Numbered from the stretch's first letter, positions 3,388 to 7,972 are shown. The stretch is DNA of 32,000 nucleotides from Erysipelotrichaceae bacterium MTC7 (GCA_001695645.1 LVZN01000078.1:1-32000), one strand, 5' to 3'. Notes: generated by a model from the letters alone, not told the origin. Made by a program: numbers and translations.

Positions 3388-3429
3388 GACTATTTAGTTG
3401 ATAGAAGTGCGATAAACAAAGGGTTTCGT

Positions 3430-4563
3430 TCAGTTTTGCAATGCGTTTGACACCAATTTGACACCATCTTGCTTTTCAATGTATGCATTTAGTTGATTAC
3501 CAACATCACTTTTTTCATGATCTAAGTGGGCATAAATATCTGCAGTAATACGTATCGACTTATGGCCCATGAGTCTTTTCGCTTCTTGTAATGGCACTCC
3601 GGCATAAAATAGCATTGTACAATAATTATGGCGAAATACATATGGTGTAAGCCCGTCGCTATTGGCTGGTGGACGATTCTCTTGTAGTGCATAACGATTC
3701 ATAGCGTTTATAATTGTCTCCCAAAACCGTCGATATGCTTGTCCTGTGATGAGTTGATTATCTTTTACATTACGAAAGAAATAATCATCTCCAATATTAG
3801 AAATATAGAACTTGAAAAATGGAACTAAGTTATTCAAGATTGGCAAGTACCTTTTTCCTGCATCTGTTTTAGTCTCTTTCAAAATTGGTCTATTCTTCTT
3901 AAACACAAGAGCACGTTGAATAACCAATATTTTTTTGTTGAAGTCAAAATCTTTTGTATGGATAGCACGAGCTTCTTCAGGTCGTAAACCGAAATATTTG
4001 ATTAGATATACGAATGCTTGTTGTCGTTCAGTGAATTCAGCATGATCAGATAAGTAATTTTCATTATCGTTAAGTGGTCTTTTATCACTAGCAACATACT
4101 TTGGAATAACTAATCCATTGCAAGGATTTTTGCTTATCCAACCATCAATGATAGCTAGTTCAAAGATTTGTTTTGCACATATCTTTATCTTTTGACATGC
4201 ACGTGGATGTGCAATGTTTTCATTAATGATAGTTTGAATATGTTGCCTAGTAATCTCATCAAGATTTAAGTGGTCAAGACTTGCAAGGTGATTTAGCGTT
4301 GTAAGGTACATGCTTTGAGTGGCGTCGGATATATTAATACACTTTATCTTATACCATTCTTCTTTATACTTTCCAAACTTCACTTTGCTATTAACGTTTA
4401 TTCCAGCTGCAATTGAGAACTTCAGTTGGTCAGCTTGTTGCTCAACTTCTTTCTTTGTTTTACCATAAACGGTTTTATAGTTTGATTTGTTCGTTGTAGG
4501 ATCTATTCCAACATTTACTTTTATTTGCCATCTTCCATCTTTTCTCTTGGTTGCTTTTGGCAT
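3430..4563 (-). CDS. int: Tyrosine site-specific integrase
   Basis: N-terminal KRKDGRWQIKV SAM-like arm-binding region. C-terminal catalytic signature: FRHNYCTMLF, MGHKSIRITADIYAHL (R..HxxR..Y). RBS GGAGG lies upstream. Confidence 0.95.
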   Translation of the reverse strand: MPKATKRKDGRWQIKVNVGIDPTTNKSNYKTVYGKTKKEVEQQADQLKFSIAAGINVNSKVKFGKYKEEWYKIKCINISDATQSMYLTTLNHLASLDHLNLDEITRQHIQTIINENIAHPRACQKIKICAKQIFELAIIDGWISKNPCNGLVIPKYVASDKRPLNDNENYLSDHAEFTERQQAFVYLIKYFGLRPEEARAIHTKDFDFNKKILVIQRALVFKKNRPILKETKTDAGKRYLPILNNLVPFFKFYISNIGDDYFFRNVKDNQLITGQAYRRFWETIINAMNRYALQENRPPANSDGLTPYVFRHNYCTMLFYAGVPLQEAKRLMGHKSIRITADIYAHLDHEKSDVGNQLNAYIEKQDGVKLVSNALQN

Positions 4564-4640
4564 TTGTGAATCCTCCTATAATTTGGTATTATAAGAGCAT
4601 AGAAAAACGATAGATGTCCGTCTATTAAATTCTATGCTCG

Positions 4641-4667
4641 CACCCAATTGCAGTTGGGTGTTTTTTA
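4641..4667 (+). terminator. Plus-strand terminator-like hairpin in the int upstream region
   Basis: CACCCAA..TTGGGTG stem followed by TTTTTTATTT on the plus strand only. Confidence 0.45.
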
Positions 4668-4709
4668 TTTCTTTTGCTTGCTAAACTATATCAAGTTATA
4701 TCAGGTTAG

Positions 4710-4737
4710 TTGACAAATATTGTGTATCAACTATAAT
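4710..4737 (+). promoter_or_regulatory. Near-consensus sigma-A promoter on the plus strand, antisense to the neighbouring genes
   Basis: TTGACA (4710-4715), 16 nt spacer, TATAAT (4732-4737). Confidence 0.5.
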
Positions 4738-4837
4738 ATAAGTAGGTCAACTCGTGATGGATATAGCTGGGTTCCCGAATGGGAGTAGATAGTGTTTAAC
4801 TATTTAGAATTCCTTTGCTCCTGGGGTTGACACCTTT

Positions 4838-5812
4838 TTATAAATTGCTTTTTATATGATTCAGAATATTTTCTGGATCTTTTTTTAATTCTTCAAATAT
4901 GAAATTGATTGCCTTGTTTGAGTAAGAATAGCTCGGAGAAGAATGAATTGTGTTCACGTAACAAAAATCAGTCTTTTCTTTTATCTCAAAATGTTTACAA
5001 AAATTCGAAAAATGATAACTGTTAAATTTTGCTTTTTTATTGTCTTTATACGTGAGATAGATTCCTTCTTTTTTTAGTTTTCCATTTATGAGCTCAATAC
5101 ATTTTTTTGTTGTATACGCATGAGTTTTATTAGGGTCTTGTAGTTTATTAATTATTTTAACTCCAGTCTCCGCATTGGCATCTATTTTGACTTTTGAGGT
5201 AGCCTTGCTTTCGCTTTTTGTTATATAGTGGTGGTGATTAATTGAAATTGCAAAGTTAGCATTATTATTTTCACTTAAGTCATCAATATCACCTTTGTTT
5301 TTAAGTAATTTTGTTGCTATTTCTTCTGGATACTTGGCTACAATTTTGCTTTCATCTAACGTTTTCATACTAACAGATAGAGTAAGAAAATTTTGGGGGA
5401 TTATGGTTGTCATATCAATTTCATGAAATTGCTCCATTTTTTCATTAAAGTTTAATACGCAGGCTTGAAACAAAGGGACATAAACCATTTCATATTCCTC
5501 GGTTATAAAGTGTGTACTTGTGTTTCGAAGCTCAATGATTTTTTCAAGATTTCTTCGTAGTGGGTCTTTATCGTTGGTAAAGACTTTTTTAATGCAATTT
5601 TCTAAAGAAATTGTTCTATCTGGATTATCTGTGAAATAAATATTCTCACGTTTGTTCAACATATGGGCCTTTAGCATTAATTCCCATGAATTACATATAA
5701 ATAATGCAAAGCCCTCTACTCTATACCGTATAGTTGGTTTGTTATATATTTCTATAGCCATTTCAAAAGCTTCTACACTTTTTTTGATTAAACGATTTCT
5801 AATATCTTCCAT
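4838..5812 (-). CDS. DUF3644-like protein with an N-terminal HEPN-like Rx4H motif (candidate RNase/abortive-infection effector)
   Basis: N-terminus AIEIYNKPTIRYRVEGFALFICNSWELMLKA matches my recollection of DUF3644. ELRNTSTH gives R-x4-H (codons at 5525-5527 and 5510-5512). Start set to the ATG at 5812, which has GGGAGG upstream. Confidence 0.6.
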   Translation of the reverse strand: MEDIRNRLIKKSVEAFEMAIEIYNKPTIRYRVEGFALFICNSWELMLKAHMLNKRENIYFTDNPDRTISLENCIKKVFTNDKDPLRRNLEKIIELRNTSTHFITEEYEMVYVPLFQACVLNFNEKMEQFHEIDMTTIIPQNFLTLSVSMKTLDESKIVAKYPEEIATKLLKNKGDIDDLSENNNANFAISINHHHYITKSESKATSKVKIDANAETGVKIINKLQDPNKTHAYTTKKCIELINGKLKKEGIYLTYKDNKKAKFNSYHFSNFCKHFEIKEKTDFCYVNTIHSSPSYSYSNKAINFIFEELKKDPENILNHIKSNL

Positions 5813-5822
5813 ATATTCCTCC

Positions 5823-6113
5823 CTATTCCATGTTAATACCATAATCTTGTAGATACTGATCAGCATATGGCATAATCATATCTACTTCTTTTTCACAATC
5901 ATCTTCTGAACTAATATCTGTATTAAAGTGATTCTTTAGTATATGAATTAATTCGTGTTTTAGTGATTGTTTATTTACTTCAATACTGTAATTCCAATTT
6001 AACAAAACATAATAAGTATCTTCTAGTAAGTAACAAAGCCCCTTTGTTGTTTTAGGTAAACAACACCTAGTTACACATATGTTATTTTGTCTACAAAAAT
6101 CCTCGAATCCCAT
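5823..6113 (-). CDS. Minimal ImmA/IrrE-family (M78-like) zinc metallopeptidase
   Basis: HELIH (HExxH) at 5943-5957, preceded by a G....YYVLLN context typical of ImmA/IrrE cores. The ATG at 6113 has GGGAGG at 6122-6127. Its stop lies 10 nt before the next gene start. Confidence 0.65.
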   Translation of the reverse strand: MGFEDFCRQNNICVTRCCLPKTTKGLCYLLEDTYYVLLNWNYSIEVNKQSLKHELIHILKNHFNTDISSEDDCEKEVDMIMPYADQYLQDYGINME

Positions 6114-6170
6114 AAGTATGTACCTCCCCAAGTTATCATACTTGAGAATGTTACATCTATTCTGTACTGA

Positions 6171-6204
6171 TAAATAAAAGGAACAACTCTACTAAAGTTG
6201 TTCC
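6171..6204 (-). terminator. Terminator between the XRE/PemK-like pair and the ImmA-like/HEPN-like pair
   Basis: On the minus strand, GGAACAACT-ttagtag-AGTTGTTCC is followed by TTTTATTTA. Confidence 0.65.
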
Positions 6205-6262
6205 AGTCCGTGGCGTATAGCCTTACTCTTGACATATGTCAGTCCGTGGCGCAATGGCCTTG
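6204..6262 (-). repeat. Two direct repeats with 36-nt period, flanking a 10-bp palindrome
   Basis: CAGTCCGTGGCG..GCCTT occurs at 6204-6226 and 6240-6262: 12 nt are perfect, plus GCCTT after a 1-nt indel. The perfect palindrome GACATATGTC sits at 6231-6240. Confidence 0.6.
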
Positions 6263-6301
6263 TACTAATATAATATCACGAAACGAATATTTGTAAACAA
6301 C

Positions 6302-6799
6302 TTAAAATGTAAAATATTTCTTTATCTCATCATCGATTTTGTTCATATGTAATGGTGGTGCGAGTAAATGAAATAATGGGTCATATTCATTTATAAAAGG
6401 CTTAATTCTAAATTTACTTATCGTTGTAATGTTTTGAATAAGCGCATACGATTGTTTGATTTTAGAATGATAGAAATCTAAATTTTCTTGTAATTTGTCA
6501 GTGACACCTAGTAATTGTGATTTTAAAGCAATCCCTCTATTAAAATCTCGAGCCACTCTTTTTAGATATTCCTCGGTACCTGAATAAACTAAGGCAAATA
6601 TCATATTCTTTAATGGTAGATAATAACGCTTAGATTTAGAACTTAAAGGAATGACTGTAAGGACACCGTTAAAATTTGAGTCCTTTTTAGTTAGGACGAT
6701 AGCAAAATGTATTCCGCTTAATTCATTCCCAACTCCCTTGCCAAAATCCACAGATACTATTTGACCTCTTTTATAAGTTTGATATTTGATTGGTTTCAC
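6302..6799 (-). CDS. PemK/MazF-fold toxin-like protein with a ~50-aa insertion
   Basis: RGQIVSVDFGKGVGNELSGIHFAIVLT...VIPLSSKSK and ALIQNITTISKFRI align by eye to MazF GDLIWVDFDPTKGSEQAGHRPAVVLS...VPCTTQSK and DQVKSIAWRAR. GTG start directly abuts the upstream stop (TAAGTG). Confidence 0.65.
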   Translation of the reverse strand: MKPIKYQTYKRGQIVSVDFGKGVGNELSGIHFAIVLTKKDSNFNGVLTVIPLSSKSKRYYLPLKNMIFALVYSGTEEYLKRVARDFNRGIALKSQLLGVTDKLQENLDFYHSKIKQSYALIQNITTISKFRIKPFINEYDPLFHLLAPPLHMNKIDDEIKKYFTF

Positions 6800-7288
6800 T
6801 TAGTCCATACCTCTTTCAGCTCTTATACCCTTGATGACAGTTAGAATACGCTCCATGTCTTCAGGACTTAGATCCTTTGTTTTATCAAATAATAAGACTA
6901 AATTGTCATTTTCTCGAATAGAGTTATATATTTCTAATAATTCTGGATTGTTCTTTTCTAGATATTCGGTAGTGGGGTTAGATGGCTTGATAATGTCTGA
7001 GAATGATTTGTAATCATCATTTTCTTTATCGTTAAAATCAAAATAGAACATACCTTTGGAAAGTAATTCATCAATATCCAAATCAAGTGCCTTGCATATT
7101 AACTCCAAGGTATCCATGTCTACACGAGATTTACCATCCTCATATCTTTTGAGTGTGCTTTTTGTTTTCACTCCACCGATTGCTTCGCTTAATCGATCCA
7201 AACTTATATCTTTTTCTATTCTACGTTCTTTAAGAACTTTTCCGAGTTGCTTGTACAATTCCATATCAAATTTGTTAAGAGCAGTCAT
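6800..7288 (-). CDS. XRE-family HTH repressor (CI/ImmR-like, no S24 peptidase domain)
   Basis: N-terminal HTH_XRE pattern (LKERRIEKDISLDRLSEAIG...STLKRYEDG). Divergent from a cro-like gene across an operator-rich region. Confidence 0.85.
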   Translation of the reverse strand: MTALNKFDMELYKQLGKVLKERRIEKDISLDRLSEAIGGVKTKSTLKRYEDGKSRVDMDTLELICKALDLDIDELLSKGMFYFDFNDKENDDYKSFSDIIKPSNPTTEYLEKNNPELLEIYNSIRENDNLVLLFDKTKDLSPEDMERILTVIKGIRAERGMD

Positions 7289-7440
7289 GGTCCATTTCCC
7301 CCTTATATAAATGCATTATACCATAAAAATGGTACACTTCAATATAAAAACCATTTTTTTGGCACATTTCTCTTGCAATAAGAAAATCTTTGTTTTATAC
7401 TTTGGATGTGCCACATAAATGGCACATGAAAGGAGAAACA
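7289..7440. promoter_or_regulatory. Divergent promoter/operator switch region
   Basis: Minus strand: TTGAAG (7342-7337), N16, TGgTATAAT (7323-7315). Plus strand: TTGCAA (7373-7378), N17, TATACT (7396-7401). Related 20-bp operators sit at 7318-7337, 7348-7367 and 7408-7427, with consensus roughly GTGCCAtAAAAAtGGCACAc. Confidence 0.7.
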
Positions 7441-7635
7441 ATGGAAGATAAAATCACAGTAAAAGAAGCACGTGAAAAAGCAGGATACTCTATAAGAGAA
7501 ATGGCTGAATTGATGGGTTGGGTTAAAACAACATATGTTAACAAAGAGAATGGAATTAGTAAGTTCTATGTGGATGAGGCAGTAAGATTTAGTAGAATAG
7601 TCAAGGTTCCAATGAGCAATATCATTTTTTTTTGA
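7441..7635 (+). CDS. Cro-like XRE-family HTH protein
   Basis: ITVKEAREKAGYSIREMAELMG is an HTH. AAAGGAG RBS precedes the ATG at 7441. Confidence 0.8.
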   Translation: MEDKITVKEAREKAGYSIREMAELMGWVKTTYVNKENGISKFYVDEAVRFSRIVKVPMSNIIFF

Positions 7636-7642
7636 ACATGAT

Positions 7643-7662
7643 GTGCCATAAAAACGGAACAC
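7643..7662. promoter_or_regulatory. Fourth operator-like site
   Basis: GTGCCATAAAAACGGAACAC matches the 7318-7337 operator at 16/20 positions. Confidence 0.55.
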
Positions 7663-7686
7663 TTACACAATAAGAAAGGAGGAAGT

Positions 7687-7893
7687 ATGGAAAAGATAAT
7701 GCGTGTAACTGAACTAGTAGAACTAGGATATGACCGCGCTACTTTAGTTAGATGGATGGATGAACCTGATTTTCCAAAAATCAAACTAGGGTTAAATCAA
7801 AAGTCGCCCTGGGGCATACCGGTAAAGTCATTTAAGAAATGGCAAGAAAAACATGGGATGTTACATGGCGACATAAAAAAAGATGATTCCTAA
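7687..7893 (+). CDS. Small HTH DNA-binding protein (excisionase/AlpA-like HTH_17)
   Basis: MRVTELVELGYDRATLVRWMDEPDFPKIK resembles excisionase-family HTH. Strong AGGAGG RBS. Confidence 0.5.
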   Translation: MEKIMRVTELVELGYDRATLVRWMDEPDFPKIKLGLNQKSPWGIPVKSFKKWQEKHGMLHGDIKKDDS

Positions 7894-7972
7894 TGCCCTG
7901 GAAAGCGAAGAATCATCAAAACAAGTAATGGCTAACTAGCCTTACTTATTATAACACAAATGAGGTAAAAAT

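Follow-up and report, generated by a model that had tools for sequence, protein, structure and literature searches.

Gene Organization of the Locus

The window discussed here is a stretch of 32,000 nucleotides (nt) (GCA_001695645.1 LVZN01000078.1:1-32000) and is a prophage of Erysipelotrichaceae bacterium MTC7. Between its lysogeny switch and its integrase gene (int) lie four protein genes, which encode an XRE/ImmR-like repressor, a MazF/PemK-fold protein of 165 amino acids (aa), a 96-aa HExxH protein and a 324-aa protein with a HEPN domain (DUF3644) and a predicted EC042_2821 restriction endonuclease (REase)-like domain. The 165-aa and the 324-aa protein are each identical to an annotated protein of this bacterium. 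Two small RNA genes accompany them: RNA#1 directly 3′ of the MazF-like gene and RNA#2 convergent with the HEPN gene. Rather than one system, this is a mosaic of two separate cassettes, the MazF-like gene with RNA#1 (cassette 1) and the HEPN gene with RNA#2 (cassette 2), in an ordinary backbone. We consider it probable that these cassettes are two type III-like modules of a ribonuclease (RNase) and an RNA antitoxin, acting in abortive infection or addiction and residing in a backbone of the immR/immA-like/int kind. Our confidence is high for the anatomy of the two cassettes and moderate for their mechanism.

A preliminary description of positions 4838-7288, made from the sequence alone, had given the order XRE repressor (without S24 domain), 165-aa protein, 96-aa HExxH protein, last open reading frame (ORF) and int, all on the minus strand, and this order is as claimed. 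The TAAGTG junction, in which the GTG start codon of the MazF-like gene abuts the stop codon of the XRE gene, the two repeats with a terminator and the 10-nt gap before the last ORF are likewise all in the sequence. The last ORF has the DUF3644-like N-terminus and the RNTSTH motif ascribed to it; its length is 324 aa, not 325.

Cassette 1: A MazF-like Protein Followed by RNA#1

The MazF-like protein (6302-6799, minus strand) had been described as PemK/MazF-like, and both sequence and structure bear this out. It matches PemK_toxin (PF02452) with its first 50 residues only (E 7.6e-10) and phrog_1412 over its full length (E 2e-45). Its AlphaFold2 model (predicted local distance difference test score, pLDDT, 90.9) superposes on the MazF proteins of Staphylococcus aureus, Bacillus subtilis, Escherichia coli and Mycobacterium tuberculosis (Foldseek E ~1e-5; template modelling score 0.7-0.78 on the target, about 0.74 for the top matches from S. 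aureus, B. subtilis and M. tuberculosis), and its top 50 Foldseek matches are all MazF-family toxins (MazF, MoxT, YdcE). In a profile search against PDB sequences the best value was E 0.006, to MazF-mt9. The sequence match is split because a helical hairpin (two helices, about 45 residues) is inserted at residues 66-111. Invariant in our alignment of the family (A1) are F19, E26, H31, D40, P51, S54, K55, T126, S128 and K129. The MazF motifs are kept across 45 homologues, with the invariant His31 at the position of the catalytic Arg and Ser53/Ser54 at that of the catalytic Thr; His31 was placed by alignment to MazF-mt9 (5hjz, the top match, which is labelled MazF-mt1 in the fold library).

RNA#1 (6172-6263, minus strand; about 92 nt) is encoded in the intergenic region 6132-6301. 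The repeats and the terminator found there had been listed in the preliminary description without interpretation, yet they represent a conserved RNA partner of the MazF-like gene. The direct repeats are ACAAGGCCATTGCGCCACGGACTG at 6263-6240 and GTAAGGCTATACGCCACGGACTG at 6226-6204; the first unit forms the hairpin GGC-CAUUGC-GCC and the second the hairpin GGC-UAUAC-GCC, and an intrinsic terminator follows at 6204-6180 with a T-run (U-run in the RNA). The promoter at 6270-6297 (minus strand) has the sequence TTTACA, 16 nt, TGaTATTAT, i.e., an extended −10 promoter with 10 of 12 consensus matches plus the TG, and near-consensus equivalents are present at homologous loci. Indeed, RNA#1 is 3′ of the MazF-like gene and has its own promoter at all loci examined.

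At the homologues a near-consensus sigma-70 promoter is followed by two short hairpins, which are GC-rich and have A-rich leaders on their 5′ side, and then by an intrinsic terminator. Of 71 distinct sequences downstream of MazF-like genes whose products are 30-50% identical to that of the window, at least 57 have this layout; the exceptions are mostly contig ends, pseudogenes and three-hairpin variants. For example, the layout is present in S. aureus phage SA13 and in pneumococcal phage 040922. The stems have diverged with complementarity kept: there are 40 distinct stem pairs among 71 units. In a structure-blind MAFFT alignment of 13 RNA#1 sequences from the subfamily designated group B (alignment A2), 90.8% of the cells are paired, as against 37-53% when the partners are slid; 11 pairs change on both sides, and the covariation score was reached by none of 500 shuffles.

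Covariance models confirmed the linkage. The model built from group B (R1) found 16 matches at E ≤ 2e-7, all directly downstream of MazF-like genes; it detects the other RNA#1 subfamilies weakly and misses the window, and no single model covers all subfamilies. A second model (R2), run over 0.9 Mb, had 24 matches at E < 1e-3, one of them in the window (6174-6267, minus strand; E 1e-5). Each lies immediately behind a MazF-like gene, and the random viral loci included in the search had no match. For the S. aureus RNA#1, BLAST detected 33 full-length copies in the phage database, and all of these are in temperate phages of the S. aureus group; in the nine records that are also among the listed matches of the MazF-like protein, the RNA is 8-22 nt from the gene. 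A degenerate DNA pattern for the group B RNA, which was too loose, returned no true RNA#1 among at least 120 stretches of viral contigs.

The MazF-like family is large, with 856 clusters at 50% identity (E ≤ 1e-10). The protein is encoded in 112 phage records, including S. aureus phages 92, 77, SA13 and phiMR25 and prophages of pneumococci, Streptococcus suis and Streptococcus pyogenes. At both loci examined for this the gene is in the lysogeny module beside int, and among the matches listed it lies at most about 2.3 kb from the end of the record where the record is cut at the integrase. Of 48 distinct contexts, 22 have an upstream neighbour with a helix-turn-helix (HTH) domain, in 14 cases a self-cleaving CI type with an S24 domain. 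In the remaining contexts the upstream gene is one for ImmA, Ltp, a PH-domain protein or a housekeeping protein, or no gene precedes in the same direction (e.g., L020). In the group B loci (L014-L035), which come from metagenome-assembled genomes of Bacilli, Mycoplasma and Tenericutes, the MazF-like gene and RNA#1 are chromosomal and are found past housekeeping genes for SHMT, a class I tRNA synthetase or Mn catalase, sometimes with a tRNA gene adjacent. The module is therefore not restricted to the lysogeny operons of prophages. It should be noted that PHROG 1412 and many phage records label the protein "antitoxin mazE-like" and others "PemK-like phage protein"; the former label is probably wrong because the fold is that of the MazF toxin.

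Some variants of RNA#1 deserve mention. A lone exact 26-nt unit of the S. aureus RNA, ACAAGTCGCTGAAATATTTGCGACAT, is present in phage 55 (L262, 2501-2526) and in phages 29, 3MRA, StauST398-5, SA97 and Henu2. In phage 55 it is located in the lysis-int region, is followed by a terminator and has no adjacent MazF-like gene. Such lone units could be pseudo-antitoxin decoys or remnants. At another locus (L005, 4642-4744) the two-unit RNA#1 is directly followed on its 3′ side by a further small gene, which has a −10 box and a terminator of its own and contains one repeat unit, TACAACGACTTAGCGTCACTG; the same is seen at L012 and L013. At L049, L051, L053, L054 and L055 three hairpins, each preceded by ATACG or ATTCG, are found 3′ of the MazF-like gene; these are the variants that were missed by the terminator finder used. 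In pneumococcal phage 040922 the stretch separating RNA#1 from int has, on the opposite strand, a match to RF02589 (Spy779816) that stays below threshold, with 42 bits as against a gathering score of 67 (L138, 3257-3337, minus strand). In the window itself a 54-aa ORF (6071-6235, minus strand) spans RNA#1 and its terminator and is almost certainly spurious.

Cassette 2: A HEPN Protein with the Convergent RNA#2

The HEPN gene (4838-5812, minus strand) has its ATG at 5812, 10 nt past the stop codon of the 96-aa gene. That its product is HEPN-like, as had been proposed, is well founded. In Pfam the protein matches DUF3644 (E 4e-60) and EC042_2821 (E 5.5e-33), and a PADLOC scan, one of the checks that had been suggested, gave PDC-S19 with E 1e-139. 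DUF3644 corresponds to the EC042_2821 HEPN family of Anantharaman et al. (PMC3710099). The RNTSTH motif (Rx4H) is R96/H101 in the annotated protein (R114/H119 in a longer ORF call), and both residues are invariant across 40 homologues. The N-terminal domain of the structural model matches the HEPN structures of HepT/SO_3166 and of sacsin; residues 235-324 are modelled as an alpha/beta domain that appears to be EC042_2821 REase-like. More than 3,400 clusters at 90% identity have the same architecture. For the locus search a query with the single protein found nothing and one with an alignment worked.

RNA#2 (4744-4849, plus strand; about 100 nt) is composed of the helices P1-P4 and a variable hairpin, and its promoter (4710-4737, plus strand) is a perfect TTGACA-16-TATAAT directed toward the HEPN gene. 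A promoter of this type (at least 11 of 12 matches) is found in the same orientation at 31 of 44 distinct loci, mostly some 117-119 nt from the stop codon, as compared with 3 of 44 for the sense strand. The transcribed stretch of about 100 nt is strongly conserved and forms a compact multi-helix structure with long invariant single-stranded stretches. In a MAFFT alignment of 31 RNA#2 sequences (A10) 99.4% of the cells are paired, nine pairs change on both sides, and none of 500 shuffles reached the covariation score. The frequent G-U pairs fix the strand.

The covariance model of RNA#2 (R3) finds the window copy with E 4.8e-21. It has 52 matches in all (E ≤ 4e-15), each convergent to a DUF3644 gene, among them those of phages Chenonceau, LP-HM00113468 and Javan254 and of the satellite JavanS344; the only DUF3644 loci without a match are those ending at a contig edge, and there were no confident matches elsewhere in 0.8 Mb. 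The U-run of RNA#2 (window 4838-4856) is antisense to the C-terminal Lys codons and the stop codon of the HEPN gene, an overlap that is conserved across loci, so one hairpin probably ends both convergent transcripts.

Three other interpretations of RNA#2 were rejected. For a type I-like antisense RNA, the duplex energies with the 5′ region of its own mRNA did not surpass those obtained with shuffled RNA (mean z −0.19) or with non-cognate pairs. A small ORF within it has an ATG that is not conserved, and mimicry of a tRNA or of a T-arm was also dismissed.

The neighbours of DUF3644 genes vary. Among 30 distinct upstream contexts an HTH gene was found in nine, an S24 gene in three and an M78 gene in three, the rest including endolysins and methylases. 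An HExxH neighbour is present at 8 of 78 DUF3644 loci, and in many streptococcal phages and satellites the DUF3644 gene is beside int where there is no MazF-like or ImmA gene.

Comparison with a Related Prophage: Two Independent Insertions

The two cassettes can be delimited by comparison with a related prophage (L139), which has the same repressor C-terminus, 96-aa gene and int-upstream DNA and contains neither toxin gene. The window matches L139 DNA (blastn) at 6973-6800, 6161-5831 and 4674-4558 only. Homology thus stops at 6800 and resumes at 6161, which delimits cassette 1 (6162-6799, minus strand) as an insertion of 638 bp relative to L139; it ends again at 5831 and resumes at 4674, which delimits cassette 2 (4675-5830, minus strand), standing in place of a 151-aa gene of L139. 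Because the matches break at these two places, the window holds two independent insertions. The insertion point of cassette 1 is exactly between the stop codon of the repressor gene and the ribosome-binding region of the 96-aa gene. The four-gene arrangement is an accident of these two insertions, and the composite system that had been envisaged is in this respect contradicted by the DNA comparison. The insertion of cassette 1 also puts a terminator between the immR and the immA-like gene; the genes beyond it may now rely on transcripts that read through from the promoter of RNA#1.

The backbone is a lysogeny module of the immR-immA-int type, as the preliminary description had recognized, with an XRE repressor and its operators, a small HExxH protein and an integrase. 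The repressor (6800-7288, minus strand; 162 aa) has an N-terminal HTH (HTH_3 E 9e-12, Pfam) and no S24 domain. Its last ~56 residues are about 95% identical to those of the L139 repressor (window 6800-6970 versus L139 926-1099), whereas the HTH part has diverged, the overall identity being 52%. This suggests that the operator specificity has been swapped and the interface for the HExxH partner kept.

The 96-aa protein (5823-6113, minus strand; motif HELIH) is a candidate minimal ImmA-like partner of the repressor. The context for ImmA/IrrE that had been claimed for it stands in part: it has the HELIH motif and follows a related repressor in the loci L139-L141, but its match to Peptidase_M78 is below threshold (E 0.0098; 16.1 bits versus a cut-off of 22). 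It also matches phrog_87 (E 2e-4), and no relative was found by sequence in the PDB. In 5.8 billion proteins it has a single homologue cluster (P0086, 84% identity; L139-L141). The order in these loci is XRE repressor, directly then the 96-aa homologue, a 151-aa gene and int, and there is no DUF3644 gene nearby. The retention of both proteins together in L139 indicates that the repressor and the 96-aa protein are a conserved ImmR/ImmA-like pair. A relationship to the protease of phage Chenonceau was considered and discarded, there being no similarity.

Comparison with Known Systems

ToxN-type toxins share the Kid/MazF-like superfold. The type III systems (ToxIN, AbiQ-antiQ, CptIN, TenpIN) are similar in that they couple a protein of endoRNase fold to a short non-coding RNA, which is strongly transcribed, bears repeats and has an intrinsic terminator at its end, and in that they are located on mobile elements. 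The spacing of the RNA#1 units is 26-37 nt, as compared with 35-45 nt for the repeats of known type III antitoxins. There are also differences. The toxin of cassette 1 is PemK/MazF by Pfam and not ToxN, CptN or TenpN, and the RNA#1 units are simple hairpins with weak repetition rather than near-identical pseudoknot repeats. Type III loci have the layout promoter-repeats-terminator-toxin in one operon (PMC12283969).

By analogy the best functional counterpart for both cassettes appears to be AbiF(Cd)/RCd22 from the Clostridioides difficile prophage phi027, in which a HEPN toxin is neutralised by direct binding of an RNA (PMC12373285). RCd22, about 100 nt long, is preceded by a sigma-A promoter, contains a hairpin motif twice and ends in a terminator (PMC12373285). 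However, AbiF belongs to the HEPN family Abi_2 and not to DUF3644, and RCd22 is upstream of the toxin gene and co-transcribed with it, whereas RNA#2 is convergent and multi-helix. The abiF RNA motif (RF03085) is matched by neither of the window RNAs.

With MazEF/PemIK the 165-aa protein has in common the MazF fold and the motifs GSE...(R/H)..IV, P(L/V)(T/S)S and T(I)(D/S)K. It differs in the absence of a MazE/PemI-type partner, in the ~45-residue helical insertion and in the His for the catalytic Arg; the constant neighbour of its gene is an RNA, encoded in the downstream space. The backbone is like ImmR/ImmA of ICEBs1 and Firmicute phages in having an HTH repressor without S24, a small HExxH protein and then int, and in the joint conservation of the HExxH protein and the C-terminal part of the repressor as the HTH part diverges. 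It is unlike them in that the HExxH protein has only 96 aa, falls below the Peptidase_M78 threshold and is split from the repressor by cassette 1.

An N-terminal DUF3644 HEPN domain with Rx4H is also found in PDC-S19, HEC-08 and Ishtar. PDC-S19 has its full architecture in common with the window protein. The Ishtar anti-plasmid proteins, which combine HEPN and a small C-terminal alpha/beta domain in one gene, are like it by description. HEC-08, in which an H128 mutant loses defence, has zinc-finger C-terminal domains, unlike the window protein. All three are described as single-protein systems with no RNA partner reported, whereas the HEPN gene of the window has a conserved convergent RNA. Membership in RosmerTA (RmrT/RmrA) was rejected: the antitoxin there is a fused HTH + M78 protein of about 380 aa, and here the HTH and HExxH proteins are separate. 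The PADLOC matches to RmrA (E 0.03 and E 7.6e-5) cover the HTH part only.

Proposed Mechanism and Alternative Explanations

By analogy with these systems, the MazF-like protein would be translated from the end of the repressor operon, and RNA#1 would be provided from its own strong promoter directly 3′. Low expression of the MazF-like protein in the lysogen is implied by the distal position of the gene in the operon and by its GTG start, and high expression of RNA#1 by the extended −10 promoter. The HEPN+REase-like protein would be opposed by the convergent, strongly promoted RNA#2, which shares the terminator of the gene. Both proteins would be toxic, and each RNA would neutralise its protein by direct binding. 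A collapse of the RNA supply would then set the RNase free. In abortive infection the trigger could be a superinfecting phage that shuts off host transcription, and in addiction it could be the loss of the prophage. It is a speculation that the two units of RNA#1 fit a MazF dimer with its two active sites. Phages with solo RNA#1 units may use these as pseudo-antitoxin decoys.

Several observations weigh against the assignment to type III-like toxin-antitoxin modules. Since His replaces the catalytic Arg of MazF, RNase activity of the MazF-like protein is not assured. RNA#1 is downstream of the toxin gene and has its own promoter, a gene order unlike that of any type III locus described (PMC12283969). 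The minimum free energy of RNA#1 in the window has a z-score of −2.37, but the folding signal of the family is modest (mean z −1.59) and its sequence repeats are weak: the best 12-mer match averages 9.1 as compared with 7.6 in shuffles, and for single loci the repetition reaches significance in no more than 16 of 52. The copy in the window therefore makes RNA#1 look more ToxI-like than it is. Single RNA#1 units occur away from any MazF-like gene, PDC-S19 is in PADLOC a candidate system only, and the ImmA-like call for the 96-aa protein leans on sub-threshold matches and context.

Three other explanations have to be weighed. Xre-COG2856 pairs such as RosmerTA are known toxin-antitoxin-like modules, and it had been proposed along these lines that the four proteins form one system, with the XRE protein as type II antitoxin of the MazF-like toxin and with the HExxH and HEPN proteins as an induction-triggered effector pair. 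The abutting GTG start, the fact that about half of the MazF-like homologues follow an HTH gene and the presence of a metalloprotease gene before the DUF3644 gene in phage Chenonceau and a few viral contigs speak for this. Yet L139 keeps the repressor C-terminal domain and the 96-aa gene where there is neither toxin, most of the HTH neighbours are CI-type proteins with S24, and the other neighbours are unrelated or absent, which argues against the repressor as antitoxin. For the HExxH/HEPN pair, the 96-aa homologues have no DUF3644 gene nearby, M78 and HExxH neighbours are rare in HEPN contexts (3/30 and 8/78, as given above), the 96-aa protein is unlike the Chenonceau protease, and the RmrA match has E 0.03. 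The neighbourhood survey that had been recommended thus gave a heterogeneous co-occurrence with XRE/ImmA genes, and comparative genomics has largely refuted the four-protein model, which we hold to be quite improbable. A very improbable alternative is that RNA#1 is a cis-acting leader or attenuator of the downstream gene, typically int, and that RNA#2 is nothing more than the other side of a terminator working in both directions, its promoter being fortuitous. It is true that int is often the next same-strand gene in prophages, that a layout of this kind brings about attenuation of the gene that follows in type III and AbiF loci, and that the HEPN gene and RNA#2 overlap at their 3′ ends. Of 59 evaluable contexts, however, RNA#1 is followed by a same-strand int in only 17 and by another same-strand gene in 21, the following gene being on the opposite strand in 18 and absent in 3; an int leader was rejected on these counts because no co-directional gene follows in 21 of the 59. 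Moreover, the RNA#1 of the window belongs to the inserted cassette and not to int, and RNA#2 has four covarying helices upstream of the terminator and, at most loci, a fixed-distance promoter, neither of which a terminator needs.

The third explanation accepts the RNAs as true partners of the proteins and denies that they are antitoxins: the MazF-like protein could process or bind a regulatory or decoy RNA directed at transcripts of phage or host, and RNA#2 could be a sensor, guide or stabilising cofactor in a ribonucleoprotein effector. The HEPN nucleases of Cas13 use RNA cofactors, the linkage between protein and RNA is strict in both cassettes, the MazF-like protein has a His at the catalytic Arg, and RNA#2 is more elaborate than the known RNA antitoxins. 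In addition, viability is hardly reduced by the action of the Ishtar HEPN proteins (bioRxiv 10.64898/2026.07.06.735840). On the other side, a strong constitutive promoter for the RNA and weak distal expression of the protein are the classic design for antitoxin excess; the closest experimental precedents, ToxIN and AbiF/RCd22, have neutralising RNAs; and no complementarity of RNA#2 was found to the 5′ region of its own mRNA, the sole target examined. We regard this explanation as unlikely and prefer the two RNase/RNA-antitoxin modules.

Novelty and Significance

The proteins are in known families (MazF/PemK; PDC-S19/EC042_2821 HEPN) and the backbone is ordinary. What appears to be new are the two RNA partners and their layouts, which are undescribed in Rfam 15 and in the literature searched. 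Neither RNA#1 nor RNA#2 matched Rfam 15 at E ≤ 1, the RNA#1 sites of seven other loci had no match in Rfam, and the window as a whole gave nothing above the gathering thresholds. In the freely available literature that was searched, no description of a prophage PemK-like/small RNA module or of a DUF3644-associated RNA was found.

RNA-antitoxin systems are known from only few toxin families. The usual search rule, repeats and a terminator upstream of a toxin, would miss both arrangements found here. The MazF-like family occurs in clinically relevant prophages of S. aureus, pneumococci and group A streptococci, and the HEPN family is on record as a candidate for defence. Should the RNAs be the missing partners, this would explain how orphan toxins are tolerated, and it would change how the proteins are cloned and tested, because constructs without the RNA could be toxic or inactive. 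It would also add two RNA families for annotation and provide a testable case of prophage abortive infection or addiction that is wired into the lysogeny operon. We regard it as possible, falling just short of likely, that there are two widespread, unrecognised protein-RNA families of toxins or immunity factors: a "toxin-first", type III-like family in which a MazF-family RNase is controlled by a two-hairpin RNA with a downstream position and a promoter of its own, and which is common in lysogeny modules of Firmicute prophages, those of S. aureus and S. pneumoniae among them; and PDC-S19 as an obligate two-component ribonucleoprotein with a dedicated structured RNA of about 100 nt. The comparison with L139 is, independently of this, a clean case of cassettes inserted at gene boundaries, here in the hot spot between int and repressor.

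Other Features of the Window

No tRNA gene was found in the window with ARAGORN, and the region 3400-7900 had no match in phage genomes by megablast. Divergent from the repressor operon is a Cro-like HTH gene (7390-7635, plus strand; HTH_3 E 2.4e-5; phrog_3). A repeat search of the switch region revealed four 17-nt operator-like sites, ATGTGCCAnAnAAAnGG, at 7321-7339, 7351-7367, 7406-7422 and 7641-7657; three are between the repressor and cro genes and one is just past cro, which is a typical switch layout. A promoter-like site of the repressor operon was located by a promoter scan at 7342-7315 (minus strand). At the other end of the block, the tyrosine integrase is encoded at 3430-4563 (minus strand; Phage_integrase E 4.6e-18; phrog_1). 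A strong terminator-like hairpin, GCACCCAATTGCAGTTGGGTGT, with a T-run is found at 4640-4661 (plus strand) between the RNA#2 promoter and the start of int, within DNA that is common to the window and L139.

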